From: Parvibaculum sp.
GTDB taxonomy: Bacteria; Pseudomonadota; Alphaproteobacteria; Parvibaculales; Parvibaculaceae
DNA length: 52,434 nucleotides
Assembly (NCBI GenBank): GCA_020062605.1
Contig: JAGUWA010000058.1
Coordinates: 1 to 52,434, forward strand
Direction of reading: 5' to 3'
Below, piece after piece: positions 10,733-36,945 of the stretch; positions within the stretch are counted from its first letter, which is position 1; each line of letters starts with the position of its first letter. Made by a program: the position numbers and the translations under genes. The notes under the pieces were generated by a model. It worked only from the letters and a program-made list of their open reading frames with translations. It was not told the origin of the DNA and ran no database searches.

Positions 10733-10755
10733 AAGATATATAGAAAATATATCTT
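10733..10755. promoter_or_regulatory. NsrR-type box upstream of ccoN
   Basis: AAGATATATAGAAAATATATCTT, 11-1-11 palindrome resembling the AAGATGCATTTnAAATACATCTT NsrR consensus. Confidence 0.75.
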
Positions 10756-10825
10756 ATTTCTGCCGCATCCGGATTCAGTACGTCTGAATCGTGCGCGCAC
10801 TTAGCCTAACCAACGCAAGAAACCG

Positions 10826-12475
10826 GTGCCGATGATTGCAACATTGACATCTACCGAGCGTCAAATCGCAATTGCCATTTCCATTCTTGTGTCCGTCTGC
10901 GGAATCGCACTTGCAGCCGCGGGACGACATGACCCATTGGAAATTCATGGATTTATTATTCTGGTGGCGGGACTTCTTTGCGCCATTGTCGTCATTCACA
11001 GCTATTACGAACCGGAGCCAACGCCCGACCGCTTGTCGAGTTACTACGATCCGCCTATCAAGGCGGGCATTGCCATGTCTATGGCTTGGGCAGTGTTCGC
11101 CATGTTCGTTGGCGTGTGGGTGGCATTGCTGCTCGCCTGGCCGGAACTGACATTTGATCAGCCTTGGGCCGGCTTCGGACGATTGCGGCCGGTTCACACT
11201 ACAGGCGTCATTTTCGGCTTCGGCGGGAATGCACTCATCGCGACGTCCTTTCACGTCATGCAGCGTACTTCACGCGCGCGTATGCCTGACCAGATCTCTC
11301 CCTGGTTTGTCCTTGCCGGCTACAATCTCTTCTGCATTCTTTCGGTCAGCGGCTACTTCATCGGTATTACCCAGTCGAAAGAGTACGCAGAAGCGGAATG
11401 GTATGCGGATATCTGGCTCGTTATCGTATGGGTGACCTACTTCGTACTTTACATACGAACGATAGCGCGTCGGAAGGAACCGCACATCTATGTAGCCAAC
11501 TGGTATTTTCTGGCGTTCATCCTCGTCGTCGCGATCCTGCATATCGTCAACAACATCGCCGTTCCGGTCTCGATCGGCCATGCCAAGAGCTACACTGTGT
11601 GGGCCGGCGTGCAGGATGCCATGGTGCAGTGGTGGTATGGCCACAATGCCGTTGCCTTCTTTCTGACGGCTGGCTTTCTCGGGATGCTCTACTATTACCT
11701 CCCCGTGAGAGCGCAACGCCCGATCTTCTCCTACCGGCTTTCGATCCTCAGCTTCTGGGGCATCACATTCTTCTACATGTGGGCCGGCTCTCACCACTTA
11801 CATTACACCGCCTTGCCCCACTGGGTGCAGACGCTAGGCATGACCTTCTCGGTAATGCTTCTGGTGCCGTCATGGGCGTCGGCTGGTAACGCGCTGCTAA
11901 CACTTAACGGCGCTTGGCACCGCGTGCGTGACGACGCAACGCTTCGTTTCATGATGGTCGCCGCGGTGTTCTACGGATTGTCCACGTTTGAAGGATCGTT
12001 CATGGCCATTCGGCCGGTGAACTCGCTCTCGCACTACACTGACTGGACGGTTGGGCACGTTCACGCCGGAGCACTCGGATGGGTTGCGCTGATTACCTTC
12101 GGTTCTTTTTATACGCTTGTGCCGAGTCTCTGGAAGCGCGAGCGCATGTACTCAGCCGGCCTTGTGGAAGTCCACTTCTGGCTCGCTCTGGCAGGCACGC
12201 TCGTCTACGTCTTCGCAATGTGGAACTCCGGCGTCATCCAAGGGCTTATGTGGCGGACATACACAAAGGAAGGAACCCTCGCCTATTCCTTCCTCGACTC
12301 ACTTGTGGCGATGCGCCCCTACTATGTTGCCCGGGCTTTCGGCGGCATTCTCTTTCTGGCCGGCGCAATCGTGGGCTCCTACAACATCTGGATGACAGTG
12401 CGAGCAGTTCCCCAAGCTGCCGACACCGGCAAGGACGCGCCCCAGCCCGAAAAAGTTGCGGTCGCGGGAGAATAA
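10826..12475 (+). CDS. ccoN: cbb3-type cytochrome c oxidase subunit I
   Basis: GRLRPVHT, QSKEYAE, QWWYGHNAV, HHLH, GHVH ligand motifs. Confidence 0.98.
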   Translation: MPMIATLTSTERQIAIAISILVSVCGIALAAAGRHDPLEIHGFIILVAGLLCAIVVIHSYYEPEPTPDRLSSYYDPPIKAGIAMSMAWAVFAMFVGVWVALLLAWPELTFDQPWAGFGRLRPVHTTGVIFGFGGNALIATSFHVMQRTSRARMPDQISPWFVLAGYNLFCILSVSGYFIGITQSKEYAEAEWYADIWLVIVWVTYFVLYIRTIARRKEPHIYVANWYFLAFILVVAILHIVNNIAVPVSIGHAKSYTVWAGVQDAMVQWWYGHNAVAFFLTAGFLGMLYYYLPVRAQRPIFSYRLSILSFWGITFFYMWAGSHHLHYTALPHWVQTLGMTFSVMLLVPSWASAGNALLTLNGAWHRVRDDATLRFMMVAAVFYGLSTFEGSFMAIRPVNSLSHYTDWTVGHVHAGALGWVALITFGSFYTLVPSLWKRERMYSAGLVEVHFWLALAGTLVYVFAMWNSGVIQGLMWRTYTKEGTLAYSFLDSLVAMRPYYVARAFGGILFLAGAIVGSYNIWMTVRAVPQAADTGKDAPQPEKVAVAGE

Positions 12476-12479
12476 TGCG

Positions 12480-13232
12480 ATGCCCGAACTCTTCCACCGT
12501 AAACTAGAGCGCTCCACCATCGGCTTCGTTCTGGCCGTCATAGCCGTCGCAAGCGTGGGCGGAATCGTGGAAATCGCGCCGCTCTTCACCATCGACGAAA
12601 CGGTCGAGGAAGCCCCCGACATGCGGCTGTATACGCCGCTCGAGCTGGCAGGCCGCAATATCTACATCCGCGAAGGTTGCTACGCATGCCACAGCCAGAT
12701 GATCCGCACTCTTCGCGACGAAGTCGAACGCTATGGCCCATATTCGCTTGCCGTTGAATCCCGTTATGATCACCCCATGCTGTGGGGCTCGAAAAGAACG
12801 GGTCCGGATCTGGCTCGCGTTGGCGACAAATATTCCGATCTTTGGCACGTTTCCCATCTAACAAACCCTCGCGATGTCGTTCCGGAGTCGAATATGCCCG
12901 CCTATCGATGGCTGGCGCGGAACCCGCTGCAGATGGAAGATCTTCCATTACATCTCGCGGCACAGCGCGCGGTCGGCGTACCCTATACTGACGACATGAT
13001 CGAAAATGCCGCGAAGGACGCATACGGGCAGGCGACTCCCGATAGCGATGCCGCATCGGGGGTTGCCGAGCGATACGGGGAAGAGACGCAGATTCGAGCT
13101 TTCGACGGCGTTGCCACGCGCGTCACGGAAATGGATGCTCTGGTGGCATATCTTCAGATCCTCGGGCGCATGACCGACGCGGCCTTCGAACACACAGCGG
13201 CACCCCAGGAGCCGCCAGAACCAGTCAAATGA
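12480..13232 (+). CDS. ccoO: cbb3-type cytochrome c oxidase subunit II
   Basis: EGCYACHSQMIR, WGSKRTGPDL, SNMP. Confidence 0.98.
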   Translation: MPELFHRKLERSTIGFVLAVIAVASVGGIVEIAPLFTIDETVEEAPDMRLYTPLELAGRNIYIREGCYACHSQMIRTLRDEVERYGPYSLAVESRYDHPMLWGSKRTGPDLARVGDKYSDLWHVSHLTNPRDVVPESNMPAYRWLARNPLQMEDLPLHLAAQRAVGVPYTDDMIENAAKDAYGQATPDSDAASGVAERYGEETQIRAFDGVATRVTEMDALVAYLQILGRMTDAAFEHTAAPQEPPEPVK

Positions 13233-13251
13233 TGAACAAGGAGCTCACGTG

Positions 13252-13422
13252 ATGGAGATCGATCACAATGCTCTCGTTTTCTTTTCCAAAAGCTGGGGCC
13301 TTCTCTACTTGGGCGGGTTCGCGGTTTGCGTTGTCGTCTATACCTTCTGGCCTTCTAACAAGAAGCGCTTCGTAAGGGCGAAAGAGAGCATTCTCGACCC
13401 GGTGGATAAGCCATGGCAGTAG
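13252..13422 (+). CDS. ccoQ: cbb3-type cytochrome c oxidase subunit CcoQ (56 aa)
   Basis: Manually translated MEIDHNALVFFSKSWGLLYL...YTFWPSNKKRF..AKESIL; AAGGAG RBS; lies between ccoO and ccoP. Missed by the ORF track. Confidence 0.92.
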   Translation: MEIDHNALVFFSKSWGLLYLGGFAVCVVVYTFWPSNKKRFVRAKESILDPVDKPWQ

Positions 13423-14294
13423 AAGAACGCGATCCGGTCAGCGGTCGGAAAACAACCGGACATGAATGGAACGGGATAACGGAGTTGGACACTCCCGTTC
13501 CGAAGGGTGTTCTAATTTTTCTGATCGTCACCCATGTGTTCGCGGTCCTCTGGTGGTTCCTGATGCCAACATGGCCGCTTGGGACCAGCTATACAAAAGG
13601 ATTTCTGGGGGTCAATCAACACAGCACCGTTGAAGAAAAGCTCGTGACCGCACAGGCAGGACGCGCTTCCTGGATGAATAGAATTGAAGCCGAGAGCTTC
13701 GAGCAGGTTCTGGCCGACCCGCAGCTCATGTCGATTGTCGAGAGCACTGGCCATCGTCTGTTCGGTGACAATTGCGCCGCCTGTCATGGCGTCGACGGAA
13801 AGGGCCGCGCGAACTACCCAAACCTGACAGATGACGATTGGTTGTGGGGTGGCTCAGTGGAAACCATCGCCGAGACGATGCGTGTAGGGATCAACACTGA
13901 ACATCCGGAAAGCCGTTTTGCGCAAATGCCCTCCTTCGGCGTCGACGGAACACTCAACCGCGAAGAGATAAGCAAAGCCGCAACTTACGTCTATTCTCTG
14001 AGTCATCCAGAGTTTTCGACGGAAGAGGTCAAGAAAAAGATCGAAAGCGGAAAAGAGGTTTTTCAGGCCAATTGTGCTTTTTGTCATGGCGAGGATGCGC
14101 GAGGAAATCAGGAGATTGGCGCGCCCAATCTGGCCGACGCGCGTTGGCTCTATGGCGGTGATCTGCAAACCATCGTGGATACTATTCATGGCGGACGGCA
14201 GGGGCACATGCCCACTTGGGACGAACGGCTGACAGAGGGAGAGATCAAGATACTCGCTCTCTATGTTCACTCGCTGTCGAAGGAAATGCGATGA
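13413..14294 (+). CDS. ccoP: cbb3-type cytochrome c oxidase subunit III
   Basis: TTGHEWNGITELD.P.P; two heme motifs CAACH and CAFCH. Confidence 0.97.
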   Translation: MAVEERDPVSGRKTTGHEWNGITELDTPVPKGVLIFLIVTHVFAVLWWFLMPTWPLGTSYTKGFLGVNQHSTVEEKLVTAQAGRASWMNRIEAESFEQVLADPQLMSIVESTGHRLFGDNCAACHGVDGKGRANYPNLTDDDWLWGGSVETIAETMRVGINTEHPESRFAQMPSFGVDGTLNREEISKAATYVYSLSHPEFSTEEVKKKIESGKEVFQANCAFCHGEDARGNQEIGAPNLADARWLYGGDLQTIVDTIHGGRQGHMPTWDERLTEGEIKILALYVHSLSKEMR

Positions 14295-14488
14295 TCCACA
14301 GCCAGGCAAAGGCCAGCATCAAGACAAGGCTTTTCATCTGGAGCATCGTTTCAGCGGCACTTTTGCTGTTCTTCGTCGCCAATGCGCACCTCGTATACGT
14401 TGCGTACGACTCCCAGCCGGATTGTATGCCGCATCTCAAGGAAGCAGGTAACAACGGAAACTTCAGAGCAGCGAAGTCTGCCTGCTGA
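14291..14488 (+). CDS. Small single-TM protein of alternative cco/fix operons
   Basis: TM helix then ANAHLVYVA..SQPDC..H...AAKSAC; ATGA overlap with ccoP. Confidence 0.75.
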   Translation: MIHSQAKASIKTRLFIWSIVSAALLLFFVANAHLVYVAYDSQPDCMPHLKEAGNNGNFRAAKSAC

Positions 14489-14501: not shown

Positions 14502-15320
14502 ATGAACGAAGTCGACAGCTCCTACGGCTTACTGAGCGAGACCTCCAGCATTGCCGAAACAAGAAACAAGAGTCTGCAGAGACATCTTCCCTTCACTATC
14601 GGCTTCAAATGGCTCCGCGCGGGGTGGCATGACCTAATCATTCATCCTGGACAAAGTTTGGCTTATGGTTTCGGCGTTTTTCTTGTTTCCCTGCTCGTTG
14701 TTATGTTGCTGGCTCAGCTCGACCTGGACTACATCCTTTTTCCTGCACTAGCCGGCTTCATGATCGTGGCTCCCATTTTGGCTGTCGGACTTTACGAGAA
14801 AAGCCGGACGTTGGAGAGCGGGGAACGCATAACTCTCCGGCGGATGTTCAGAGCCAAACCAAAAGCCGGTGCGCAGATCTATTTTGCCGGCGTGATGCTT
14901 TGCCTCCTCATGCTTCTCTGGATGCGCGCCGCCGTTCTTCTCTATGCCCTCTTTTTCGGCGTCAGGCCATTTCCGGGGCTCGATCACATCCTGGGGTTAC
15001 TCGTTACGCAGCCACTTGGGTGGTCAATGCTCATTGTGGGCACGGCGATCGGCAGTCTCTTTGCTTCATTCGCTTTTGCGATCAGCATTTTTTCCATTCC
15101 CATGCTGCTCGACCGCTCTACCGATGCGATGACGGCCATGGGCACAAGCATGGCGCTCGTCTGGAACAATTTCATTCCAATGGTGGTTTGGGGAATGATC
15201 GTCGTGGTTCTTTTCGCAATATGCGTTCTTACGGCGCTCACCGGGTTGATCGTGATTTTTCCTCTGCTGGGGCACGCCACTTGGCACGCCTACCGAATGG
15301 TCGCCCAATCGGACCAATAG
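14502..15320 (+). CDS. DUF2189-like integral membrane protein
   Basis: WLRAGW.D, AGFM.VAP.LA.GLYE.SR, P.LGHATWHAY; GAGGAGG RBS. Confidence 0.85.
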   Translation: MNEVDSSYGLLSETSSIAETRNKSLQRHLPFTIGFKWLRAGWHDLIIHPGQSLAYGFGVFLVSLLVVMLLAQLDLDYILFPALAGFMIVAPILAVGLYEKSRTLESGERITLRRMFRAKPKAGAQIYFAGVMLCLLMLLWMRAAVLLYALFFGVRPFPGLDHILGLLVTQPLGWSMLIVGTAIGSLFASFAFAISIFSIPMLLDRSTDAMTAMGTSMALVWNNFIPMVVWGMIVVVLFAICVLTALTGLIVIFPLLGHATWHAYRMVAQSDQ

Positions 15321-15411: not shown

Positions 15412-15633
15412 ATGACTGTCCTTGTATGGCTGATTCCAATAGCGCTGGTAATGGGTTTGGTCGCTTTGTGGGCGTTTATGTGGTCGATAGAAAGCGGCCA
15501 ATATGATGACCTTGAAGGCGCGGCGGAACGAGTTCTGCTCCATCCACAGGAGGACCACCCGCTACCAGATGAAAAAAGATGCAGTTCACGCGAAGAAGGA
15601 AGTAATGTTGAAGGTAATGGTTATGAGAAATGA
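15412..15633 (+). CDS. ccoS: cbb3 assembly protein CcoS/FixS
   Basis: LIPIAL.MG...F.WS..SGQYDDLEGAAERVL. Confidence 0.92.
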   Translation: MTVLVWLIPIALVMGLVALWAFMWSIESGQYDDLEGAAERVLLHPQEDHPLPDEKRCSSREEGSNVEGNGYEK

Positions 15634-15852: not shown

Positions 15853-17595
15853 TCATTCGCGTTTCGTCTCCGCCAAACGGAAGGCGTTGCGGGCTTTCAA
15901 TAAATCCTGCCGCGACAGAATACCCACCACATGGCGGCTCGAAGGATCGATGATCGGAATGCGTCCTATTCCAGTCTCGATGATGATATCCGCTACCAAG
16001 CCGCTCGGGCTATTGGGGTAGGCAAAGGGTTGAGAAGCATCAGCGAGCGCATCAGCAATCGTGGTGCTGTCGGCGCTGCTGGCACTTTGCCAACGGAGCG
16101 CATCGGTTCGCGACACCAAGCCGAGAAGTCGCCTTTCGGAATCGACAACAGGATAGCTGCGATGTTTTGCTTTCTCACGAAAGAAGGCAAGTGCCTCCGC
16201 AACTGTGGTCGTCCCGGGAAGGGTTTTTGGATCTCGCGTCATGAGCTCTCCGGCTTGCATCAAGTCCAGCGAGTCAACCGAGTATTCCTGCAGTACATGA
16301 CGCCCGCGCCGCGCGATCTTCTCCGTCAAAATGGACCTGCGCATCAGCAATACGCTCACCGCATATGCACAACCCGCCGCAGCGATCGTACAAGGAAGCA
16401 TCTCGTAATGTCCGGTAAGCTCCACGGCGAACAATGCACCCGTGATGGGCGCTCTCATAGCACCGCTCATGATGCCGGCCATCCCCACCATTGCCCACCC
16501 TCCCGCCTCGCCCGGCAGAAGAAGACCCATGAGCGATCCGGCTGCTCCTCCCAGAATCAGAAGTGGTGCCAGCACGCCACCCGACGTGCCCGAACCCAGC
16601 GCAATAAGCCAAACGCAGGCCTTTACGATAAGCAGAGCCGTTACCACCTGCACCGCCAGGGAATTGTCGAGCAAAGATTGGATGCTGGTATATCCTGCCC
16701 CCAAAACATGCAGGTCGATGAGCCCGCCTATTCCGACCCCAACGCCACCTATAGCAGGCCACCACATCCAGTGGACAGGCAATCTGTGAAACAGGTCTTC
16801 TATCCAATATAGCGCCGTGGAAAGCAGCGTCGCCTCAAGGCCAGTAACAATGCCGATGCAAGCCGCAGCCGCAATTGATGCAGGCTCCACCACCATCGTC
16901 GTCAAAAAGGAAAACATCGGTCCGCCGTCGATCATCACCGGACGCCACAACCAGGCGACGAGTGCTGCGACGACCACAGGAACAAAACTTCGTGGTTTCC
17001 ACTCGAATAGTAGAACTTCGACCGCCAGCAAGATGGCGGCAAGCGGAGTGTTGAAAATTGCCGTCATGCCGGCAGCGGCGCCGGCAACCAGCAATGTCTT
17101 GCGCTCAGCCGCACTAAGATGGAAGCACTGAGCAAAAAGCGAACCGATTGCACCTCCGGTCATTATTATCGGGCCTTCTGCCCCAAACGGGCCACCACTG
17201 CCAATGGAGACTGCGGAAGATAGGGGCTTTAGAATGGCGACTTTCAACGAAAGCCTGCTCTCGCCGTATAGGATGGCTTCTATCGCCTCAGGAATTCCGT
17301 GACCGCGAATTTTTTCTGATCCGAATCGGGCCATCAATCCCACGATCAAGCTGCCCATCGCAGGTACCACGAGAACACCGAAGCCGATTGACGTTTCGGT
17401 GATCGATGCGGGAGCTACCGATACCCTGCCGAACCAAAAAAGGTTAGTCGCAAAAGCGATTAGCTGGAGTAAAATCCAAGCTCCGCAGGCCCCGCCTGTG
17501 CCAACCACCAGCGCCATTCCAGCTAACAAGATCATCCGCCAATCGGCGCTGTGATCAGCGAGCTGGTGATAATCAGCGATACGTCGGGACTTCAT
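15853..17595 (-). CDS. ClC chloride channel/antiporter with CBS domains
   Basis: GHGIPE, GAEGP, GTSGG motifs; C-terminal CBS pair. Confidence 0.92.
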   Translation of the reverse strand: MKSRRIADYHQLADHSADWRMILLAGMALVVGTGGACGAWILLQLIAFATNLFWFGRVSVAPASITETSIGFGVLVVPAMGSLIVGLMARFGSEKIRGHGIPEAIEAILYGESRLSLKVAILKPLSSAVSIGSGGPFGAEGPIIMTGGAIGSLFAQCFHLSAAERKTLLVAGAAAGMTAIFNTPLAAILLAVEVLLFEWKPRSFVPVVVAALVAWLWRPVMIDGGPMFSFLTTMVVEPASIAAAACIGIVTGLEATLLSTALYWIEDLFHRLPVHWMWWPAIGGVGVGIGGLIDLHVLGAGYTSIQSLLDNSLAVQVVTALLIVKACVWLIALGSGTSGGVLAPLLILGGAAGSLMGLLLPGEAGGWAMVGMAGIMSGAMRAPITGALFAVELTGHYEMLPCTIAAAGCAYAVSVLLMRRSILTEKIARRGRHVLQEYSVDSLDLMQAGELMTRDPKTLPGTTTVAEALAFFREKAKHRSYPVVDSERRLLGLVSRTDALRWQSASSADSTTIADALADASQPFAYPNSPSGLVADIIIETGIGRIPIIDPSSRHVVGILSRQDLLKARNAFRLAETKRE

Positions 17596-17671
17596 TCAGG
17601 ACCTTTATGCCTCGCTCACCTTTTTGGTTTATTATATCGTATTACGATATTTCTCAATACGAGCTTTTCCC

Positions 17672-18079
17672 TTGACCGAACGCCCTCTACGAGACCTCGA
17701 CTATGTGTTGCTGGCAGACTTTCGAGCAGCACTGCGCTCATTTGCAGCCTTCAGCGAAGCGAAGGCGGCAGAAGTCGGGCTTTCACCTCAGCAACATCAG
17801 GCGTTGCTTGCCATCCGCGGTTCTGCGCCGGAACAGGCTACCGTTGGCCACCTCGCCGAACGGCTGATGCTTAAACCTCACAGCGCTTCTGAATTGGTGA
17901 GCAGACTCGAAGCATTGGGTTTGGTCCAACGCGAGACAGCAGAAAATGACAGACGAATGTCGATTCTCCTCCTCACAGATCGAGCAAGAGAATTGCTTAC
18001 TCAGCTGTCTAAGCATCATCGCGACGAAATCCGTCGACTTAAGCCGCTTCTGCTCGACCTCCTCGAGCGCTTCAACTGA
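17672..18079 (+). CDS. MarR-family regulator divergent from clc
   Basis: GLSPQQHQALLAI, LAERL...HSASELVSRLE..GLV.R...DRR; start uncertain (17624 or TTG 17672). Confidence 0.85.
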   Translation: MTERPLRDLDYVLLADFRAALRSFAAFSEAKAAEVGLSPQQHQALLAIRGSAPEQATVGHLAERLMLKPHSASELVSRLEALGLVQRETAENDRRMSILLLTDRARELLTQLSKHHRDEIRRLKPLLLDLLERFN

Positions 18080-18313
18080 CAAGCTCACGGACAGGTAATT
18101 TTCCTGTTGCCAGATGTATGCGAATTTTCGACGCTGCATTACTGATCTGAAAGGGCATGCATCTCTTAGCGGAGATCCAGATTCTAATAGACAGTGCTAG
18201 TCTCCACATTGTTGGGTCGAAACCTACGTTTCCCCCGGGTAATGATGCTTTGTGACAGCCTTCCCGACGAGGGTGGTGACGCGATGCGGTCGTATCACCG
18301 CGCCACCAGCTTC

Positions 18314-18733
18314 TTATCTGTTCCGCTGCACACCGATTACCTTCAACGAGCGCTGATCGCCATATCGAGTGTTCCAGGAAATTGTGTTTCCGATCTTCAT
18401 TCCAAGAAGTGCAACACCCACGGGAGAAGCAAGTGAAACGACCCCTTCTCTCGACACGGCATTCTCGGGAAGCGCCAATGCGAGACGTTCTACGCGACCC
18501 GTGGCGCCGAAAATAAATTCGGCGGTCGAACCCACGGTGACCACGTCGAGCGGCACACGAAACAATGGTACCAGCCGAGCTCGCTCCAGTTCCCGCTCGA
18601 GGAAACGTCCGACTTCGGGAATTGCGTCAATCAGCAGTTCCGAAACTTCGCAAATCTCATCGAACTGTTCTTCGGCCACGACAATCGGTGGAAGGTCGGC
18701 GAAGGCCTCCGTCATTCTCTCTATGATTGCCAT
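18314..18733 (-). CDS. Rnk-like (GreA/GreB C-terminal domain) protein
   Basis: LERELERA, DVVTVGS, VSLASPVGVALLG...G.TISW. Confidence 0.85.
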   Translation of the reverse strand: MAIIERMTEAFADLPPIVVAEEQFDEICEVSELLIDAIPEVGRFLERELERARLVPLFRVPLDVVTVGSTAEFIFGATGRVERLALALPENAVSREGVVSLASPVGVALLGMKIGNTISWNTRYGDQRSLKVIGVQRNR

Positions 18734-19239
18734 TACGCAGCCTCCGGTCCGTCGTCTGTGCGACCTTGAGTCATCCGCGCTCGAGCCTCCGCTTCCGGCT
18801 GATTTTCAAGCGCCGATATTTCAATGCGGAGCTTCCTTCCATCGAATACCTCCGCCTCCACCGTCTCTCCCGGCTTCCTGCCGATAAGAGCAAGGCCCAC
18901 TGGGGTCAAAACGCTTACGTATTGCCCGTTTGGCACTTGTTGGTGACCAAGAGTCAGCAATCGACGTTGTTGAACGTCGCCATCGATGCGGTATCGCACA
19001 GTTGTACCGAGCGTGATTACATCCTCGGGCATTTCATCAGAGGGCAGGATCTGAGCTACGGACAAGAGGTGTGCGATCCATTGACGCATCGGGTTCAGCA
19101 TGTCGATTTCTTCGAATGCCGTTATTTCGAGGCGTCCATAGTCATGGGAGCTAAGCACCCGCCGGGGGTGTCTCGGTTCGTTGATTCTATTAGCTTTATA
19201 TGAAGGCAAGCGCGTTGCGCCGTTGTCCTTGTTCGACAT
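18733..19239 (-). CDS. Second Rnk/GreA-family protein
   Basis: MPEDVITLG, VSVLTPVGLALIGRKPGE, QPEA. Confidence 0.82.
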   Translation of the reverse strand: MSNKDNGATRLPSYKANRINEPRHPRRVLSSHDYGRLEITAFEEIDMLNPMRQWIAHLLSVAQILPSDEMPEDVITLGTTVRYRIDGDVQQRRLLTLGHQQVPNGQYVSVLTPVGLALIGRKPGETVEAEVFDGRKLRIEISALENQPEAEARARMTQGRTDDGPEAA

Positions 19240-19477
19240 AGCGGAATCCTCACAGCGGAACGGCGTTGCAGCCGCCCGTCTATCTAGTTCAAATTTGGTG
19301 TGAGAACGATGTCCCCGGACTTCGCGCGCGCATGCGCCGCGTCGGCCCGGGGCTAAACTCCCGCGAGCAACGTACCAGGCGCAAGAAACTGAAATTCGTT
19401 CGCGAATTGCATAAAATAAGTCTACTGCATTTCAAAAAGTTGTCAAAGTACACGGATCCTGGATCCTTTTGCGCAAA

Positions 19478-20191: not shown

Positions 20192-20345
20192 AGCGTGATC
20201 CTCCCAAATAGAGATTAGATGAAAAAGAAGCGCAAAGGTTCCCGGCATCGATCCTTTTTGTGCATCGGCCGGAAAGGGATTTCGGGAACCTTGCCGTCCC
20301 TTCTCCATCAAATGGGCATTCCCATTCCCAAGAACGAGACAAGAC

Positions 20346-20993: not shown

Positions 20994-21078
20994 CAGCACC
21001 CGATACGGGAACCTTTTCCGCAATGCCCCATCAAATGAATATGCCCGCAACCGGGCAATATTCATCGGGAGACGAACC

Positions 21079-21600: not shown

Positions 21601-21602
21601 CC

Positions 21603-21935: not shown

Positions 21936-21946
21936 CAAGCGCCCTG

Positions 21947-21976
21947 TCGCCCGGAGGAACAGTCTCCTCCGGGCGA
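21947..21976. terminator. Hairpin between convergent cupredoxin and metB genes
   Basis: TCGCCCGGAGGA-6 nt-TCCTCCGGGCGA perfect 12-bp stem. Confidence 0.7.
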
Positions 21977-26681: not shown

Positions 26682-26883
26682 GTTGCATCTACCTCAGCAG
26701 TTGGCTCCCCCTCCCCTGCGCCTCTGCCCGCTCATTCGGGCAGACCGGGTGCTGTTTTCGTGAAGCCGTTTCGCTAGGCGCAGATGTGCGTGGTTTGCTT
26801 TCACAAGACAAACGCATATTGTTTTTGTTTCTAAGCAATTTCTTGAATACCAACGGCGTTCCGCTTCGGAAGCGGAGCCGGAT

Positions 26884-28241: not shown

Positions 28242-28308
28242 CCCTCAACATCTTTCATTTTATTTCATAATTATATTCATTTGCTTGCTCTTCTTTCGCA
28301 AGTGAATA

Positions 28309-28578
28309 GTGGAGACAGATGGTCATGTGAAGCGAAGCAATCTGATGACGAAACGGAATCCAAGATCGCCTACCGACCATTTTCCTTGGCGGTTTGTCAT
28401 CTATTGGATTGCGGCATCGGCTGTTACAACTATCTCCGTTCGCGCCATGGTCCGCATTTTTGTAGCCACTGGGGCCATCCAAGAAGCTGATGCCAACTTT
28501 GCTACGCTCATGGCTCTTCCCGTCGCATTCTTGGTTGTTGTGCTATTGCGCCCGAGAAGCACCGATCCTGACACATAA
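28309..28578 (+). CDS. Small two-TM hypothetical protein
   Basis: Two hydrophobic stretches; fills the gap before prx; start uncertain. Confidence 0.4.
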   Translation: METDGHVKRSNLMTKRNPRSPTDHFPWRFVIYWIAASAVTTISVRAMVRIFVATGAIQEADANFATLMALPVAFLVVVLLRPRSTDPDT

Positions 28579-28666
28579 AATATATTGTTCTTATACCGTA
28601 ATAACATTCTCTTGTTTGCGGCTTAGTACGGCTGCATTTTAACCGCGTCGCCCAAAGGAGTTTCCC

Positions 28667-29293
28667 ATGACAATTCAGCTCGGACAGATCGCGCCAGACT
28701 TCGAACAAGACAGCACCCATGGCCGGATCAACTTCCACGACTGGAAAGGGTCCAGTTGGTGCGTTTTTTTCAGCCACCCCAAGAATTTCACGCCTGTCTG
28801 CACGACCGAGCTCGGTGAAGTAGCGCGTCTACGTCCCGAGTGGGACAAGCGCAATGTGAAGCCAATCGGGCTGTCGGTGGACCCGGTCGAGGCCCATCAC
28901 AAATGGGAAGATGACATTGCGGAAACGCAGGGACACGCGCTCGACTTTCCGATGATCGCAGATCCAGACGGGCGCGTATCGAAGCTCTACGACATGATCC
29001 ATCCCGAAAGCGACCCTACGGTGACCGTTCGCTCCGTTTTTGTCATCGATCCATCGCGCAAGATTCGACTGATACTGACTTATCCTCCCAGCACCGGACG
29101 AAACTTCGCGGAGATACTTCGCGCCATCGACAGCCTTCAGTTGACAGACTCGCGCAGCATTGCGACGCCGGTAAACTGGGAGCCAGGACGGGCCGTGGTC
29201 ATTTCGCCGAAGCTCTCCGAGGAAGAAGCTACGAGACAGTTTCCGCAGGGCTACAAAACGCTGAAGCCGTATCTGCGCATGGTCGATCTTTAG
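28667..29293 (+). CDS. 1-Cys peroxiredoxin (Prx6/LsfA-like)
   Basis: FSHPKNFTPVCTTE, TGRNF.EI.R, terminal PYLR. Confidence 0.95.
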   Translation: MTIQLGQIAPDFEQDSTHGRINFHDWKGSSWCVFFSHPKNFTPVCTTELGEVARLRPEWDKRNVKPIGLSVDPVEAHHKWEDDIAETQGHALDFPMIADPDGRVSKLYDMIHPESDPTVTVRSVFVIDPSRKIRLILTYPPSTGRNFAEILRAIDSLQLTDSRSIATPVNWEPGRAVVISPKLSEEEATRQFPQGYKTLKPYLRMVDL

Positions 29294-29307
29294 CCGCAGG
29301 AATAGCC

Positions 29308-30018
29308 ATGCATGCGCCTTTCGATTTGACGATGGAGGAAGAGGGAGAGATTGTCGCTGGAGAGGATGGGGACGGCGGTCTTTCCAACTTGTTTGAGCGA
29401 AACAAAGTTTGGGCGGAGCGCAAAACAAGATCCGATCCAAGCTTTTTCAGACGCTTGGTTGGTCAACAAACTCCACGTTACTTTTGGATCGGGTGCTCTG
29501 ATAGCCGCGTACCCGCGACGGAAATTGTCGACCTCGATCCTGGAGAGATGTTCGTTCACCGAAACGTTGCGAACCTGGCAAGCGCTTCAGATCTGAGCTT
29601 TTCTGCGGCTTTGCAGTTCGCCGTCGACGTGCTTCAGGTTCGTCACGTCATTGTAGTCGGACATTATGGTTGTGGTGGCATCTCTGCCGCGATAAGCGGC
29701 CGTGCAAACGGCAAAATTGGCTGCTGGCTCAATCCGGTGCGCAAACTTTGTTGCTCCCTATCGCACAGTTCTTCAAATGATGTTCTGGATCCAAACATAT
29801 TGTGCGAACTCAATGTTGTCGCTCAGGTGGAAGCACTCGTACTCAATCCGACTATAGGCGCTGCCTGGGCACGGCAGGCGGATCTGACTTTGCATGGATG
29901 GGTATACGGAATTGGCGATGGACTTTTAAGAAGCGTATGCGATCCGGTAACGCCGCTGGGGCGCTCCGAGGCGGTGAGCAGCCCAAAAGCACAGACAAAT
30001 GACAGCGCACTCTTCTAA
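29308..30018 (+). CDS. can: Beta-carbonic anhydrase
   Basis: WIGCSDSRVP, FVHRNVAN, GHYGCGG. Confidence 0.93.
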   Translation: MHAPFDLTMEEEGEIVAGEDGDGGLSNLFERNKVWAERKTRSDPSFFRRLVGQQTPRYFWIGCSDSRVPATEIVDLDPGEMFVHRNVANLASASDLSFSAALQFAVDVLQVRHVIVVGHYGCGGISAAISGRANGKIGCWLNPVRKLCCSLSHSSSNDVLDPNILCELNVVAQVEALVLNPTIGAAWARQADLTLHGWVYGIGDGLLRSVCDPVTPLGRSEAVSSPKAQTNDSALF

Positions 30019-30427
30019 CGCTGACCTGATCCAAGCCGCGATAGATGCATGTCGCGCCGGCAAGTCACCAAACAGGCAGTTAGATTCCCAAGTTGCGCGA
30101 GCAATTTTTTCCCATCTCGCAGCCATGCAGGAAATCGAGGTGGGCATCTGGCAGAATGCAGATGGAACTCGGATGACAGCGCCACGATACAGCTCCTCTG
30201 TCGCGGCAGCGATGACGCTAATTCCTTCCGGCTACCGGCTTGAAGATAGCGGATCATATTTCGTCGTGGTCGGCGACTCGGGATCGTCGAGGGGGCGTCA
30301 CAAGTATTTGGCCATCGGACTCTGCATTGCGGCGCTCCGTTGCCGCTTGGTGAATGAGATCACCATACCCCTCAAGCAGGATAAAGATTTGCGGCCAGCC
30401 GTCCATTCCAGCATCTCGCTCGGCTAA
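29999..30427 (+). CDS. Hypothetical protein, phage ABA-sandwich-like pattern
   Basis: RQLD..VARA...PRYSSSVAAA..L...A.GLCIAAL. Confidence 0.55.
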   Translation: MTAHSSNADLIQAAIDACRAGKSPNRQLDSQVARAIFSHLAAMQEIEVGIWQNADGTRMTAPRYSSSVAAAMTLIPSGYRLEDSGSYFVVVGDSGSSRGRHKYLAIGLCIAALRCRLVNEITIPLKQDKDLRPAVHSSISLG

Positions 30428-30453
30428 CGCCGAAAACATGGGAGCTTTATCCG

Positions 30454-31116
30454 ATGACACCTCGAGCAGCAGCTCAGAGAAAATTTTCTCTTCCCCCACT
30501 ACCTTATGATCGCGATGCATTGTCTCCCCATCTATCCGCAGAAGCGATCGACATTCACTACGGCAGACACCATGCCCGCTACATTGAAACCCTCAATCGC
30601 CTTGTTGAAAATCTCAGAACGTCCCCCGCTACACTCGAGGCGCTCATTCACCATTCGCGCGAGTCGGATGCCCCTCTTTTCAACAACGCTGCACAAGCAT
30701 GGAATCATGCATTTTTCTGGGAAAGCATGTCTCCGCAAGCAACCGAGCCCGCGGATGAACTGCGGGAAGCCATCTCCCAGAGGTTCGGAAGTGTTGATAC
30801 TTTGAGGGAACGCTTCATCGCCGAGGGAACTGGACATTTCGGTTCAGGCTGGGTGTGGTTGGTCTCCCACAAAGGCGATCTTTCCGTAACATCCACACAC
30901 GATGCGGGCACGCCGATCACCAACGACGGCGTGACTGCCCTATTAGCGTGCGATGTTTGGGAACACGCTTATTACATTGACTACCGCCAAGATCGGGCCA
31001 CCTGGTTGGCAAAATGGTGGGATCATCTTGCTAACTGGCGCTTTGCTCAAACGCAATACGAAGCTTCGCTGGGCAAGGTCCGTGGCTGGGTATTTCTTGA
31101 CACCGGTGATGCTTAA
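30454..31116 (+). CDS. sodB: Fe/Mn superoxide dismutase (Fe-type)
   Basis: HY.RHH..Y, FNNAAQAWNH.FFW, FGSGW, DVWEHAYY. Confidence 0.93.
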   Translation: MTPRAAAQRKFSLPPLPYDRDALSPHLSAEAIDIHYGRHHARYIETLNRLVENLRTSPATLEALIHHSRESDAPLFNNAAQAWNHAFFWESMSPQATEPADELREAISQRFGSVDTLRERFIAEGTGHFGSGWVWLVSHKGDLSVTSTHDAGTPITNDGVTALLACDVWEHAYYIDYRQDRATWLAKWWDHLANWRFAQTQYEASLGKVRGWVFLDTGDA

Positions 31117-31556
31117 TAAGAAGGGCGAATGAGAGGTGGCAGAAATTTGAATCGGTGCACCCCAATTTCGCTGCGTCCACATGGCGCAATCACCTCGTCA
31201 TCGGCAGACGCATACTTGCTTGGACTGAGTGAGCCTTCATCACAAAATCAGCACGGCCGCTACTGTAACCGGGCGGCCTCACTGTCCGAATCGGAATTTG
31301 GTCGCTCCATTTGTATTCGTTTGGAGGAATTCATGAGAGCCACAGTAGCGATGAGATGGCTTAGTCGCCGCGGTCTGTGGATTACATTTTTGACTGCGGC
31401 TTTGGTGACCATTCTCTTCGTTGTATTCCTTCCCCGCGTCGCACGTGTGGATGGAACTTCCAATCGAGCGTCCATGTCGCAGTTGCGCATCGAAGACAAC
31501 ATTCATCCAGATTGACTCAAACTTCTCTTGCCTTCTGCACTACGTTGAGGTGCCTT

Positions 31557-31895
31557 TTAGTCTCCTTCACCTGCTTTAGGGCTAAACGCCGCCAGCTTCC
31601 CCGAGATTCCATTCAGAGCATCCGCTTCTGGCATAGGCGTCTTTTTCCGCGTCAGATTCGGCCATTTGCCAGCATACTCTGCATTCAATTCTAGCCATTG
31701 CGGTGTGGCCGGTTGGTCTGTATCCGGAAATATCGCTTCAGCCGGGCATTCTGGAACGCAGACTCCACAATCGATGCATTCGTCCGGGTGAATCACCAGC
31801 ATATTTTCGCCTTCGTAGAAGCAATCGACCGGGCACACCTCCACGCAGTCGGTGAACTTGCATTTAATGCAGTTATCCGTAACTACGTGCGTCAT
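31557..31895 (-). CDS. fdxA: 7Fe ferredoxin FdxA
   Basis: [30 protein letters not shown]. Confidence 0.95.
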
Positions 31896-31912: not shown

Positions 31913-31935
31913 TTGATATATTTGATATATATCTT
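31913..31935. promoter_or_regulatory. NsrR-type box upstream of fdxA
   Basis: TTGATATATTTGATATATATCTT. Confidence 0.72.
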
Positions 31936-31986: not shown

Positions 31987-32484
31987 CTAATTGCGACCTT
32001 TTCCCTTCCCCCCTCGCCCTCTCTTCCACCTAAGATCTGGACCGCGGGTTTCATCAACCGGCACTCCCAGGCGGCCGAAATCTTTTCGCTTAAGAGTGAT
32101 ATCGGCGAGAGTATATTTATCTAAAGTCCCGACAAAAGAGAGTAACGCTTCGTTCAACACGTTTGCCAACTCGCATTTTTTGGTCAACACACATTGATTG
32201 CCGGTGGCAAAGCACTCTACCAATGCGAAATCCGGTTCTGTTTCCCGAACTACATTTCCAAGGTTAATTTTCTTGGGAGCTATCGCGAGCATGAATCCCC
32301 CGGAGCGGCCGCGCACGCTCTTCAGGTATCCTGCCCTTGTCAGCATATTCACCACCTTCATCAAGTGCGCCTTTGAGATGTCATAAACCTTCGACGTCTC
32401 ATCGATTGTGATAAGCCGGTCATTCTCAGCCGCTGCATATATAAGGACGCGCAAGGCATAGTCGGAAAGTGTCGTTAAGCGCAT
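31987..32484 (-). CDS. nsrR: Rrf2-family regulator, NsrR type
   Basis: MRLT..SDYALR.L, HLMKVV, RGRSGG, three Cys in ECF...NQC....C; divergent from nnrS. Confidence 0.88.
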   Translation of the reverse strand: MRLTTLSDYALRVLIYAAAENDRLITIDETSKVYDISKAHLMKVVNMLTRAGYLKSVRGRSGGFMLAIAPKKINLGNVVRETEPDFALVECFATGNQCVLTKKCELANVLNEALLSFVGTLDKYTLADITLKRKDFGRLGVPVDETRGPDLRWKRGRGGKGKGRN

Positions 32485-32579
32485 GTCTTATCCACTAGGT
32501 TGGGCACAAGTTCTTAGAGCCGCTCCGGATACAGATCGATCATTCATGCGACAAACGGCGTCATCGTTTTGTCGGGTTT

Positions 32580-32602
32580 ATGATATATTTTATATACATC
32601 TT
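32580..32602. promoter_or_regulatory. NsrR-type box in the nsrR/nnrS intergenic region
   Basis: ATGATATATTTTATATACATCTT. Confidence 0.8.
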
Positions 32603-32657
32603 ATGGACGGATGTACGACATTGCCATTTCCCGTCAAATGTGCGCGGAGGACGCCCG

Positions 32658-33833
32658 ATGAAGAGAGGTGCGGTTCGGACGGATACATTGACGCTGCTCA
32701 CCTACGGTTTCCGGCCATTCTTTCTCGGCGGCGCTATATGGGCTGTGATGGCTATGTTGCTCTGGGTCGGGATAGTCGCTGGGCGAATAAAGATCGACCT
32801 CGGCTTACCTCAGATATCTTGGCACGCTCATGAATTTCTGTTCGGCTATGTAGGAGCGATCATAGCCGGATTTCTGCTGACCGCAGTTCCAAACTGGACC
32901 GGGCGCGCTCCATTGCAAGGTTTCGTGTTGCTCTCCCTTCTAGTTCTCTGGATAGCGGGAAGGGTAGCCCTTCTGGCGGCAGGACTAGTTGACTACTGGG
33001 TAGCTGCATTTGTTGATGTTCTTTTCTTGCCATCCCTTGCCCTATTTCTACTGCGGGAGGTTCGCGCAGCTGGAAGCAATGCCAACATCCTAATAATAGC
33101 TGTTGTTTTGGTACTGGCCCTCGCCAATGTGCTTTTCCACACCGAAATAATCGTCTACGGGTATACGACATTCGCCGGGCGCGGCTCCATTTCGCTGATC
33201 CTTCTTCTCATCGTATTGATCGGTGGACGCATAGTGCCGAACTTCACCAGAAACTGGCTCGCAGGGAGAGGGGAACACCGCCTGCCTGCACCAATGGATG
33301 GATTTGACCACACAGTGATCGCGATAAGCGTGGCCTCATTGATCATGTGGACGTTTTTCCCATCCATGCCTCTTACCCCACTGTTTTTGCTAACCGCCGG
33401 CGTCTTTCACGCGGTTCGCCTTGGACGATGGTCGGGCTGGCGCACTCGATCTGAACCTCTCGTCTTTATTCTTCATGTGGGCTACGCGTTTGTCCCCTTT
33501 GGGTTCCTATTGGCTGGAGTGTCGTTGATCTGGCCGTCCATCGTCATGCCTTCCACCGCTACTCACGCGTGGACAAGTGGAGCTATGGGAACAATGACGC
33601 TCGCCATCATGACACGTGCGACTCGGGGACATTCTGGCCGCTCTCTAACGGCTCCTCGCACAACGCAGATTGCATACTTGTGCATCATTTTGGCGGGCGT
33701 TCTGCGGCTCGGTGAGGCCTGCCTGCCCGACGCATCAATGACACTCTATGTTCTGTCAGCTCTTTCTTGGGTCGCCGCGTTTAGCATCTTTTTGATGATC
33801 TATGGCCCGATGCTTGTACTGCCCCGGCGCTAA
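32658..33833 (+). CDS. nnrS: NnrS heme-Cu membrane protein
   Basis: GFRPFFL, WHAHE.LFGY, GFLLTAVPNWTG, GGRIVP.FT, RAT.GHSGR. Confidence 0.95.
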   Translation: MKRGAVRTDTLTLLTYGFRPFFLGGAIWAVMAMLLWVGIVAGRIKIDLGLPQISWHAHEFLFGYVGAIIAGFLLTAVPNWTGRAPLQGFVLLSLLVLWIAGRVALLAAGLVDYWVAAFVDVLFLPSLALFLLREVRAAGSNANILIIAVVLVLALANVLFHTEIIVYGYTTFAGRGSISLILLLIVLIGGRIVPNFTRNWLAGRGEHRLPAPMDGFDHTVIAISVASLIMWTFFPSMPLTPLFLLTAGVFHAVRLGRWSGWRTRSEPLVFILHVGYAFVPFGFLLAGVSLIWPSIVMPSTATHAWTSGAMGTMTLAIMTRATRGHSGRSLTAPRTTQIAYLCIILAGVLRLGEACLPDASMTLYVLSALSWVAAFSIFLMIYGPMLVLPRR

Positions 33834-33874
33834 ATTTTGCTCAGACGCACAACTGGAGAGTCCCGCCATTAAAA

Positions 33875-35254
<1,380 letters not shown>

Positions 35255-35331
35255 CTATTGGCAGGTCGCAGAGGTTTCAGATGTCGCCCGCCCGGTGGCA
35301 GGCTGAGATATCGCTTGTACTTGCGCAGGTT

Positions 35332-35760
35332 CTAGATGATGTGAATTCGAACGTCCACGTTTCCTCTTGTCGCATGTGAATATGGGCAGATTTTTTGATG
35401 CGCCACCTCGACGATCTCCGATTTCTGCTCGGCTTCGAGACCATCAATCCGGACTTCAAGCTCCACAGAAATTGAGAATCCGCCCTGCGTTCGCGGTCCG
35501 ATTCCAACGTTCGCTGTTACTTGTGTACCAGGTCCCAACGAGAATCCCCGATCTCCGGCCGCAAGCCTTACCGCACCTTCAAAGCAAGCCGCATATCCAG
35601 CCGCGAAAAGCTGCTCGGGATTAGTTTTAGGGCCTCCCGGCCCACCAAGTTCGGCCGGCATGACGAGTTCCAACTCCAGAACACCGTCACTGCTCCGCAC
35701 ATGGCCCTCGCGTCCGCCTTTCGCTGTAACAACCGCGGTATATAGAACACCAGTCGACAT
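35332..35760 (-). CDS. ohr: Organic hydroperoxide resistance protein
   Basis: GGREG, TNPEQLFAAGYAACF, CPYS.ATRGN. Confidence 0.95.
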   Translation of the reverse strand: MSTGVLYTAVVTAKGGREGHVRSSDGVLELELVMPAELGGPGGPKTNPEQLFAAGYAACFEGAVRLAAGDRGFSLGPGTQVTANVGIGPRTQGGFSISVELEVRIDGLEAEQKSEIVEVAHQKICPYSHATRGNVDVRIHII

Positions 35761-35773
35761 AGCTTTCTCCGCT

Positions 35774-35989
35774 CTACTTGGGGTTATTGGTTCGTTTCGC
35801 CGCACCGATCTTCATCCAATCGCGCAGAAGCCCCTTGTCTTCCTTAGAGAAACGCGCACGCGCCTTGAGATTTTCAAAAGTGTCGCCTGGATAGGATCTT
35901 TCGTAGTCACGGCAAATCGCTCTTTCGATCGCCTCCCATTCATCCGGATCTGACGGCCCGATCTTTTGCAAAACTCCGTTTGCTGACAT
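35774..35989 (-). CDS. Small conserved-looking hypothetical protein upstream of ohr
   Basis: DYERSYPGDTFENLKARARFSKEDKGLLRDW; 13 nt from ohr; start uncertain. Confidence 0.6.
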   Translation of the reverse strand: MSANGVLQKIGPSDPDEWEAIERAICRDYERSYPGDTFENLKARARFSKEDKGLLRDWMKIGAAKRTNNPK

Positions 35990-36177
35990 ATAACGTTCGC
36001 CATTCGAACTAGCGTCAGTCACCGTGTGACACATCGTCTCTGAACCTGTATTCACAGACGTCCTTTCGTCCGGCCTTCAGGTGTTGCAAGCGCTCCCATC
36101 AGAAGGGACTGCGGTATTGTTGCGCATGTCAAAACTTGCTACGACGAAAATAACTCTTTGCATTTTATACCCACAAT

Positions 36178-36200
36178 AACATATAATTTATATATATCTT
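36178..36200. promoter_or_regulatory. NsrR-type box upstream of hyp-ohr(-gdhA)
   Basis: AACATATAATTTATATATATCTT. Confidence 0.6.
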
Positions 36201-36520
36201 TTAGCGCAGTGTACCGAATACGCTTCGCTGTTCGTGATCAATCCTTCCTCCTCGGCCACGACCTCGACGTCGCGAAAATGCCAGGTCACTGGCTACTGGC
36301 ACGTTTGGATAAGCGTGTGCGTCGCTCCGGGGCCTAGGAATGACTCAGAAATTTCTTGCCAGCCTTACCATTACAGAGGGGTAACAATGTAGTCGAGTTT
36401 GCTCTCGGGCTCGATGGGACCGCATCTCGCATCATTCCATGCACACCAAGTCGTTACATCGGTATCGAACATGCCAAAGAAGCTGCCACTTGGACGCTGA
36501 TGCATCACCACATCCTTCTT

Positions 36521-36871
36521 CTACATTCTCTCTTTCAGAAATTCGGCAAGAACAACTGCATGATTGTGAGCCTCATCACGCGCGCCATATAGCAGCGTTG
36601 CACAATCATTTCCCATTACCTCCTTTAGCCGTTCCACTTCGTCTTCATTGCTCTCAAGCTCTTGCCGGTATTTCTTCTTGAACTCTGTCCACCGCGACGG
36701 ATCATGTCCGAACCATTTCCGAAGAGATGCGCTAGGCGCAATCTCCTTGTGCCATAACGCAATTCCCGCCGCCTCTTTCTTTACCCCACGCGGCCAAACA
36801 CGATCGACCAATACACGCACCCCATCTTGAGGGGACTTCTTTTCGTATATTCTCTTCACCTGGATTTTCAT
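36521..36871 (-). CDS. DUF488/YeaO-family protein
   Basis: KRIYE...DG.RVLVDRVWPRG, APS..LRKWFGHD, HNHAVVL. Confidence 0.92.
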   Translation of the reverse strand: MKIQVKRIYEKKSPQDGVRVLVDRVWPRGVKKEAAGIALWHKEIAPSASLRKWFGHDPSRWTEFKKKYRQELESNEDEVERLKEVMGNDCATLLYGARDEAHNHAVVLAEFLKERM

Positions 36872-36922
36872 CGACCATCACTCCCTCTGGGGGATACCGG
36901 CAAAATTTTTCAGCCGAATGTT

Positions 36923-36945
36923 AACATGTATCTGATATATTTCTT
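36923..36945. promoter_or_regulatory. NsrR-type box between divergent DUF488 and membrane-protein genes
   Basis: AACATGTATCTGATATATTTCTT. Confidence 0.68.

Follow-up and report, generated by a model that had tools for sequence, protein, structure and literature searches.

A 52,434-nucleotide contig of a Parvibaculum sp. (JAGUWA010000058.1 of assembly GCA_020062605.1; the whole stretch is hereafter "the window") carries a mobile cassette with five predicted operators of the nitric oxide (NO) sensor NsrR and a gene for an NsrR-type Rrf2 regulator, and one of the operators stands directly ahead of a complete operon for a cbb3-type terminal oxidase. We consider it likely that an NsrR-type protein represses this accessory ccoNOQP operon together with fdxA, nnrS, the hyp-ohr-gdhA genes, a DUF488 gene and its own gene, and that NO releases them all; we infer both the binding and the signal. 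The genes for cbb3 oxidases are textbook low-oxygen genes, and an NO-switched cbb3 would be unusual because ordinary cbb3 oxidases are poisoned by NO. Such an operon under a repressor that NO releases suggests that its enzyme may function in the presence of NO.

The boxes have the form AAGATATAT-N5-ATATATCTT. With up to three mismatches allowed, the window holds exactly five matches, at 10733, 31913, 32580, 36178 and 36923 (0, 2, 2, 2 and 3 mismatches, respectively), just where the initial annotation had placed five boxes, and 100 dinucleotide shuffles of the window gave none. The whole host assembly (2.77 Mb in 453 contigs, 79.5% complete) contains six matches, five of them on the window contig. 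To avoid circularity, an independent matrix was trained outside the window, on 15 distinct boxes from nsrR/truncated-hemoglobin (trHb) promoters of relatives. With this matrix, boxes 1–5 score 26.0, 16.1, 24.2, 17.8 and 22.4 bits and, along with the box of the host's core nsrR (contig C196, 23.7 bits), take ranks 1 to 6 in the genome, with box 1, ahead of ccoN, as the top-scoring site of all; the sites at ranks 7 and 8, on C248 and C318, lie within coding sequence and were discarded. The refuting test set beforehand, whether such boxes are simply frequent in AT-rich intergenic DNA, came out in their favor: 1,000 shuffles of 40 intergenic stretches (9,839 bases) produced 0.002 matches on average and never more than 1. 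When the 63 bases round each box were shuffled 2,000 times, the threshold was reached 0, 3, 0, 0 and 0 times for boxes 1–5. Together with the dinucleotide shuffles, these intergenic and local controls rule out chance AT-rich repeats as the source of the boxes. The sole four-mismatch candidate for a sixth box, at 28577 between ccoS and fdxA, scores 3.0 bits against 16–26 for the five and was discarded. The five boxes fit the NsrR operator consensus gATGyAT-N5-ATrCATc, as published in PMC1274295, and by this match their motif is of the ordinary NsrR operator type.

Box 1 (10733..10755) lies 76 bp upstream of the ccoN ATG (10832), and box 2 (31913..31935) 17 bp upstream of the ATG of fdxA (31557..31895, minus strand), which encodes a 7Fe-type ferredoxin (NF045490 above cut-off) and is a second copy beside a core one on C167. 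Box 3 (32580..32602) occupies the divergent promoter of the nsrR-type gene (31987..32484, minus) and nnrS (32658..33833, plus; PF05940). Box 4 (36178..36200) precedes three minus-strand genes: a small conserved hypothetical gene without a Pfam match (35774..35989), ohr for an organic hydroperoxide reductase (35332..35760; TIGR03561) and, last, gdhA for an NADP-glutamate dehydrogenase (33875..35224; NF006929 above cut-off). Box 5 (36923..36945), which resembles the core box on C196, lies between the divergent genes for a DUF488 protein (36521..36871, minus) and a 152-residue membrane protein (36985..37443, plus). The latter had been labeled DUF4149-like, but the protein has no Pfam match at E 0.01; a look-alike at locus L250 also has an upstream box. 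A 2Fe-2S ferredoxin gene follows at 37819..38145 (plus) and stands directly after box 5 in a related genome, G006. The earlier statement that every box is intergenic holds if nnrS starts at the ATG at 32658; the ATG of the longest open reading frame (ORF) falls inside box 3.

Two of the boxed promoters share a further element, TGCGACAAAC, whose two window copies lie at 10699 (10699-10708, 34 bp upstream of box 1) and 32547 (32547-32556, preceding box 3); the genome holds six copies, and the element is kept in relatives. It is possibly an activator half-site, perhaps RegA-like. Across five aligned ccoN promoters, a conserved TTG lies 17 bases upstream of a TA within box 1, and box 1 would therefore cover the -10 element. 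This -10/-35 placement comes from the promoter alignment only, because a sigma-70 scan of the ccoN promoter did not call the predicted -10 and returned one weak far-upstream match, no better than in shuffles. A scan of the window for RNA families and tRNAs found none.

The initial annotation had also remarked on the lack of a TTGAT-N4-ATCAA box before ccoN despite fixLJK nearby. The box is indeed missing (none with up to two mismatches in 10445-10831), which is nothing special: none of 18 canonical ccoN promoters of the genus (L089, L090, L153-L168) has an FNR box within 350 bases, so the absence at the window's ccoN says little. The argument from fixLJK falls away with it, as these genes lie in the flank outside the cassette; they were ruled out as cassette cargo, being outside the whole element and beside core genes in G007, G009 and G018. 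For the host's core ccoN, 196 upstream bases are assembled. No NsrR box was found in 32 canonical ccoN promoters.

The cassette's Rrf2 protein (31987-32484) belongs to PF02082 and has the three cysteines that had been noted earlier, C91, C98 and C104, which align with the cluster cysteines of Streptomyces coelicolor NsrR. That protein is its best match in the Protein Data Bank (PDB; 5N07, E 1e-14), with Asp8 and the three cysteines aligned. The cassette protein retains both D8 and R12; Asp8 is the fourth ligand of the NsrR cluster and pairs with Arg12, according to passages of PMC5411485. The NCBIfam profiles cannot separate NsrR from RirA, because the scores tie at 119.7 bits and both are below cut-off (NF008240, cut-off 182, and NF008886, cut-off 193). 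In a 76-row FastTree, the protein falls in a 57-row group with Escherichia coli NsrR, at a local support of 91 that is below 95 and comes with a long-branch warning; IscR stands apart, as do, with support 99, five N8-bearing rows that we take to be RirA-like. An N8-type regulator is a feature of RirA, and a RirA regulon was rejected: the residue is D8 rather than N8, the recognition helix is a different one, and no iron-uptake gene lies behind any box. By these marks, the cassette Rrf2 protein is an NsrR-type regulator.

A second, core NsrR is encoded on C196 of the host, 42% identical to the cassette one and divergent from a truncated hemoglobin gene. Its near-identical box speaks against the earlier notion of an island regulator that works by itself. 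Probably, the cassette boxes are also read by the core NsrR, in which case the cassette would join the resident NO response (core truncated hemoglobin and quinol-type NO reductase, qNor). The qNor is encoded elsewhere in the host genome and is 77% identical to that of plasmid NZ_CP023451. Neither Hmp nor NirK was found in the 79.5%-complete assembly with one query each; one molybdopterin-family match was returned.

Conservation in relatives supports the regulon. Of 48 other genomes of the genus, 5 carry orthologues of the cassette regulator (75–79% identical). In G001, G006 and G044, the box before ccoN is kept in 3/3 (also in G010 and L001), and so is that at nsrR/nnrS (also in G062 and L001); the fdxA box is kept in both of these genomes that have fdxA (G001 and G006; also L001), the box before hyp-ohr-gdhA in G001, and the DUF488 box in G006 and G044. 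In Microbaculum marinum (L001), boxes precede ccoN/trHb, fdxA and nsrR/nnrS. Substitutions in the orthologous boxes stay inside the consensus although the flanking DNA diverges. The boxed genes occupy other contexts in G001, G006 and G044, and the regulon is therefore older than the cassette. Searched with a degenerate NsrR pattern, the whole genomes G006, G044, G001, G456 and G457 hold 5, 4, 5, 5 and 1 sites, and the reversed pattern has none in any of the five. The one site in G457 lies between divergent nsrR and ccoN genes, and that nsrR is the only Rrf2 gene above the Pfam cut-off found there. Likewise, a cassette-type NsrR is the only one found in G006 (E 1e-15), where no nsrR is called between the usual neighbors of the core gene (L249, G006:C12:417111), yet the trHb box is retained. 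This arrangement suggests that the cassette regulator took over the core trHb box of G006, and both cases point to the cassette-type protein as a binder of the boxes. The expectation that the boxes would stand out in a matrix scan of the genome and of orthologous promoters was thus confirmed, with the boxes in the top six and recurring at orthologous promoters, and the earlier proposal of an NsrR-type operator and regulator with ccoNOQP as a likely member is strengthened by consensus fit, D8/R12, tree and conservation.

In the mechanism that we propose, NsrR carrying its iron-sulfur (Fe-S) cluster would block the promoters at the boxes, with box 1 over the -10 element of ccoN, and destruction of the cluster by NO would release all boxed promoters. 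Once induced, the accessory oxidase would probably surpass the core cbb3 in keeping O2 respiration going when NO or nitrite is present, which is the weakest step of the scheme, while FdxA, the 2Fe-2S ferredoxin, NnrS and GdhA would act alongside it. We assume here that the two ferredoxins replace damaged Fe-S carriers, that NnrS protects Fe-S enzymes, and that GdhA bypasses the Fe-S glutamate synthase.

The oxidase operon lies on the plus strand: ccoN (10832..12475; TIGR00780 above cut-off), ccoO (12480..13232), ccoQ (13252..13422; PF05545), ccoP (13413..14294; TIGR00782), a 65-residue membrane ORF without a Pfam match that is also called in related operons (14291..14488), a gene for a DUF2189 membrane protein that marks accessory operons (14502..15320), and ccoS (15412..15615). 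The CcoO, CcoQ and CcoP subunits are thus all encoded with CcoN. A canonical ccoNOQP-GHI operon lies on C297 of the host, and its CcoN is 57% identical to the window's. The cassette has ccoS but no ccoI, ccoG or ccoH, so the accessory oxidase would have to depend for its copper on that core operon. Its CcoN belongs to a separate accessory clade of 80 rows (FastTree local support 100), in which the operon order is ccoNOQP-small ORF-DUF2189-(ccoI)-ccoS. All 80 accessory CcoN sequences retain the heme b, heme b3 and CuB histidines and the cross-link Tyr251. Set against 32 canonical CcoN sequences, they are near-fixed for a difference at 48 columns, many of them round the active-site helices; among these are H243 to S/G, P256 to S/A and GGMING to ASAGNA (3MK7 numbering). 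H243 is replaced by S or G in 80/80, and the window's product has S at both 243 and 256. All five matched PDB CcoN sequences keep H243, P256 and GGMING. Taking the proton-channel residues to be T215, Y223, S240, H243, N289 and Y317, we find all but H243 retained in 80/80, and the altered helices are presumably those lining the channel; a literature search for H243 or the proton-channel helices found no paper. Of 49 genomes of the genus, 12 have the accessory clade, as do 9 of 400 other genomes drawn evenly across classes (at most three candidates scored per genome), and it is common on rhizobial and sphingomonad plasmids.

For a view of the wiring elsewhere, we surveyed the loci of the best 80 of 597 confirmed matches, of which 64 accessory and 14 canonical loci had upstream DNA (L057 and L066 were dropped). 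The DUF2189 gene is present in 63/64 accessory and 0/14 canonical loci, which have ccoGH instead. An NsrR box lies within 5 kb of the accessory ccoN in 15/64. Accessory loci contain an Rrf2 gene in 21/64 cases and at least one of nsrR, trHb, nnrS, hmp, nirK, norB and nnrU within about 10 kb in 31/64, versus 0/14 canonical loci for each; on plasmid NZ_CP023451, genes for Rrf2, trHb, hmpA, ccoNOQP and NO reductase stand together. An NnrR-like box precedes ccoN in 13/64 accessory and 0/14 canonical loci. Among 556 unrelated promoters taken as background, 4 have an NsrR, 24 an FNR-type and 12 an NnrR-like box. The direct NsrR boxes require at least five changes on the CcoN tree, on at least five separate branches. 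Within the genus, 6 of 12 accessory ccoN genes have one.

Several observations weigh against the proposed reading or against its generality. The survey, being the best 80 of 597, leans to close relatives, and kin are not independent, so its counts overstate. An NsrR box scoring 10 bits or more directly precedes ccoN in just 6/64 accessory loci (0/14 canonical) and in none of eight accessory loci fetched from the even class draw, one of which has an adjacent NsrR-type gene and one norB plus nnrS. The accessory operon of Sinorhizobium meliloti 1021 has no NsrR box in the surrounding 30 kb. FNR-type boxes precede ccoN in 13/64 accessory and 14/14 canonical loci, and about half of the accessory loci have none of the FNR, NnrR-like and NsrR boxes directly upstream. 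One canonical locus, L072, carries norQ/norD, outside the counted marker set. From the literature, NO strongly inhibits cbb3 oxidases and repressed the canonical ccoNOQPG of Sphingopyxis TFA (parts of PMC6472365), and high O2 also acts on NsrR clusters (in an excerpt of PMC12774639). In view of 6/64, 0/8, no box in S. meliloti and 6/12 in the genus, NsrR control is best described as a recurring minority wiring that is strongest in the genus.

Two side observations came from the same loci. A perfect TTGCG-N4-CGCAA box of the NnrR-like type precedes the accessory ccoN at L021, L025, L033, L035, L045, L052, L061 and L063, none of which has a direct NsrR box; judged by motif, the NnrR-like boxes would represent a second wiring of the accessory oxidase to an NO regulator. 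An NADP-glutamate dehydrogenase gene, as at 33875-35224 in the window, recurs by the accessory oxidase in distant families (L022, L047, L053, L054, L084) and possibly provides an Fe-S-free bypass of glutamate synthase under NO.

More broadly, we put forward, as a tentative idea held at somewhat less than even odds, that the DUF2189-linked CcoN proteins form an unrecognized mobile cbb3 subfamily, whose remodeled proton-channel helices confer NO tolerance or consumption and which has been wired repeatedly to NO sensors (NsrR, NnrR) in Alphaproteobacteria and spread on plasmids and recombinase cassettes. It is somewhat unlikely, though a serious contender, that NsrR control is real and the oxidase is not NO-tolerant: it would then be a mobile spare low-oxygen cbb3 that takes whichever regulator is near (FNR/FixK, NnrR or NsrR) and adds capacity under NO. 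The FNR-type and NnrR-like boxes (13/64 each), the half of loci without any of the three boxes, the lack of NsrR boxes in the even draw and the inhibition of cbb3 by NO are all what one would expect of such an enzyme. However, NnrR is itself NO-responsive (PMC1274295) and NnrR-like boxes are enriched (13/64 against 12/556 in the background and 0/14 in canonical loci), and the clade has 48 near-fixed differences from canonical CcoN, many at active-site helices. That the enzyme is mainly a sink for NO or nitrite, a cbb3 tuned to turn NO into N2O beside Hmp, trHb and qNor, seems distinctly improbable. At some loci, the operon does lie behind hmp and trHb on one strand, and H243, which we take to be a proton-channel residue, is S or G in 80/80; cbb3 enzymes are reported to reduce NO and nitrite slowly (excerpt of PMC8780969). 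Still, Tyr251 and the three CuB histidines are kept in 80/80, as in O2 reductases, and the host already has a qNor.

The remaining alternatives concern the regulator and its signal. We give little credence to the Rrf2 protein sensing something other than NO, be it sulfide, cyanide, O2 or Fe-S status, and the sulfide/cyanide sensing suggested by the initial annotation finds no backing here, since the regulator and its neighbors point to NO. The cassette does carry cysJI, metB, prx and sodB, and neither ohr nor fdxA counts as a classic NO gene; the one hint for cyanide is that CN-, like dithiothreitol (DTT), can react with the Asp-ligated iron of the NsrR cluster (passages of PMC5411485). But the sulfur/peroxide block has no box, the regulator groups with NsrR and carries D8 where the RirA-like rows have N8, and relatives of it are found at the head of trHb, hmp and nnrS units. 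Nor is it at all probable that the core NsrR on C196 is the only reader of the boxes and the cassette Rrf2 a passenger. A matrix made from core-type boxes does score all five highly, and box 5 is like the C196 box; against this, G006 and G457 have boxes and only the cassette-type protein was found there, the recognition-helix sequences of the two types differ, and so do their preferences at position 6 of the half-sites (A in 42/58 for cassette-type, G in 20/26 for core-type). Release of the cassette operon by NO, through an NsrR-type protein, remains the reading that we prefer.

Known systems supply several of the parts. As in the NsrR regulon of Rodionov et al. (2005; PMC1274295), the window has the operator consensus, nnrS as a member, divergent autoregulation, and Asp8 plus three cysteines; unlike there, the half-sites lean to AAGATATAT and the members include ccoNOQP, fdxA, ohr, gdhA and DUF488. 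The main text of that study does not contain "cco", and its five text supplements contain none of cco, fixN, cbb3 and oxidase; it reports NsrR to be nearly absent from alphaproteobacteria. For the logic, the direct precedent is aox of Vibrio fischeri, where NsrR releases a terminal oxidase under NO (sections of PMC1274295 and PMC6472365); however, Aox is reported there to be NO-insensitive and is not a heme-copper enzyme, whereas the window encodes a complete heme-copper cbb3, a class reported to be inhibited by NO. In P. aeruginosa, the specialized cbb3 subunits CcoN3 (induced by nitrite) and CcoN4 (by cyanide, through MpaR) are said to add resistance (excerpts of PMC5697931 and PMC10790758). 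These subunits belong to orphan NQ pairs relying on borrowed O and P, with ccoN4 under a GntR-family regulator, in contrast to the full operon here, and nitrite-induced CcoN3 is a closer functional precedent than the cyanide isoform CcoN4 that had been taken as the model.

The S. meliloti pSymA operon, with a CcoN 77% identical to the window's and a DUF2189 gene behind it, is of the same clade and differs in lacking the NsrR box. The genes fixN3/O3/Q3/P3/I2/S2, probably those of this operon, were up in nodules of a defense-activated host mutant, in a passage of PMC10671737 that names no regulator, and this expression remark was all that a literature search on fixN3 found. The canonical FnrL/FixK-type ccoNOQP-ccoGHIS has the same subunits and metal ligands as the window's operon; in other genera, it has an FNR box in 14/14 cases and linked ccoGHI, while the window has no FNR box and only DUF2189 and ccoS. 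In a search made up mostly of titles and abstract openings, we found no published report of a complete cbb3 operon under NsrR, although RegPrecise or the subscription literature may list such sites. An NsrR-controlled terminal oxidase (aox) and a nitrite-induced cbb3 subunit were thus already known, and what appears to be new is a complete cbb3 operon with NsrR-type boxes. Whether the enzyme tolerates NO is directly testable, as named strains and plasmids carry the operon and fixed differences set the clade apart close to the active site. If the proposal is correct, the third cbb3 operon of S. meliloti would gain a candidate role, and fdxA, gdhA, ohr and DUF488 would join the alphaproteobacterial NO response.

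The mobile context claimed earlier is supported. The cargo (10445-38429; 55.6% G + C versus 62.8% for the genome) is bounded by two 30-bp palindromes (11-8-11) at 10415-10444 and 38430-38459, and the same flanks in G006 and G042 have a single palindrome copy and no cassette, with a right side about 80 bases shorter than in the window. Outside the window, copies of the palindrome lie at L169:15185, L170:8617 and L140:988. The cassette flanks form part of a larger element, at about 500-43180, with hipBA, tnsA/B/C-tniQ, Xre-RES, an 814-residue ORF and a second trpS. The 814-residue ORF (39298-41742, minus) adjoins the cassette and had no Pfam, NCBIfam or PHROG match; its C-terminal motifs are, we assume, tyrosine-recombinase-like, and its stretch has DNA matches in several genomes of the genus. 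The palindromes and this ORF may constitute an undescribed site-specific cargo-loading system in a Tn7-like element.

The cassette is a mosaic and, contrary to the earlier picture, not a single unit of regulation. No box occurs in the 16 kb that separate ccoS from fdxA (including cysJI, metB, prx, can, sodB and the gene for an ECF sigma factor), and this block is 88% identical to G001, versus 72–77% for the boxed parts. Its genes (15853-31515) comprise a ClC channel with MarR, two GreA-like genes, the ECF sigma factor, folE, DUF4142, a cupredoxin, metB, cysIJ, DUF6306, a LysR gene, a 1-Cys peroxiredoxin, carbonic anhydrase and Fe-SOD; for cysJI, the host assembly holds no second pair that is close.

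Public sequencing data cover the stretch. Three DNA runs from separate studies match the window with few differing letters, and contigs of one RNA run lie over parts of the ccoNOQP operon, although contigs are blind to level, strand and start. Near-identical DNA was found in wastewater, bioreactor, groundwater and seawater samples, settings in which nitrite and NO meet low oxygen. In one run, X10, contig depth falls from ~439 to 125 over 32449-38705 (from the 5' end of nsrR through the ferredoxin), with no joint listed, which hints that most of that population lacks this segment or has it rearranged. An apparent opposite-strand joint at 38429 in the same run reflects an alignment of the two palindromes with one another.

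Other features of the larger element stand apart from the regulon. The protein of the second trpS (41957-42958) is 100% identical to the copies in G006 and G007, where nearby core DNA is only 79–91% identical, consistent with a recent transfer of the tRNA synthetase. Near the left end, three 24-nt direct repeats spaced 49–50 bases apart (726-848) are possible transposase binding sites, and a T-rich repeat precedes tnsA at 2872-2948.

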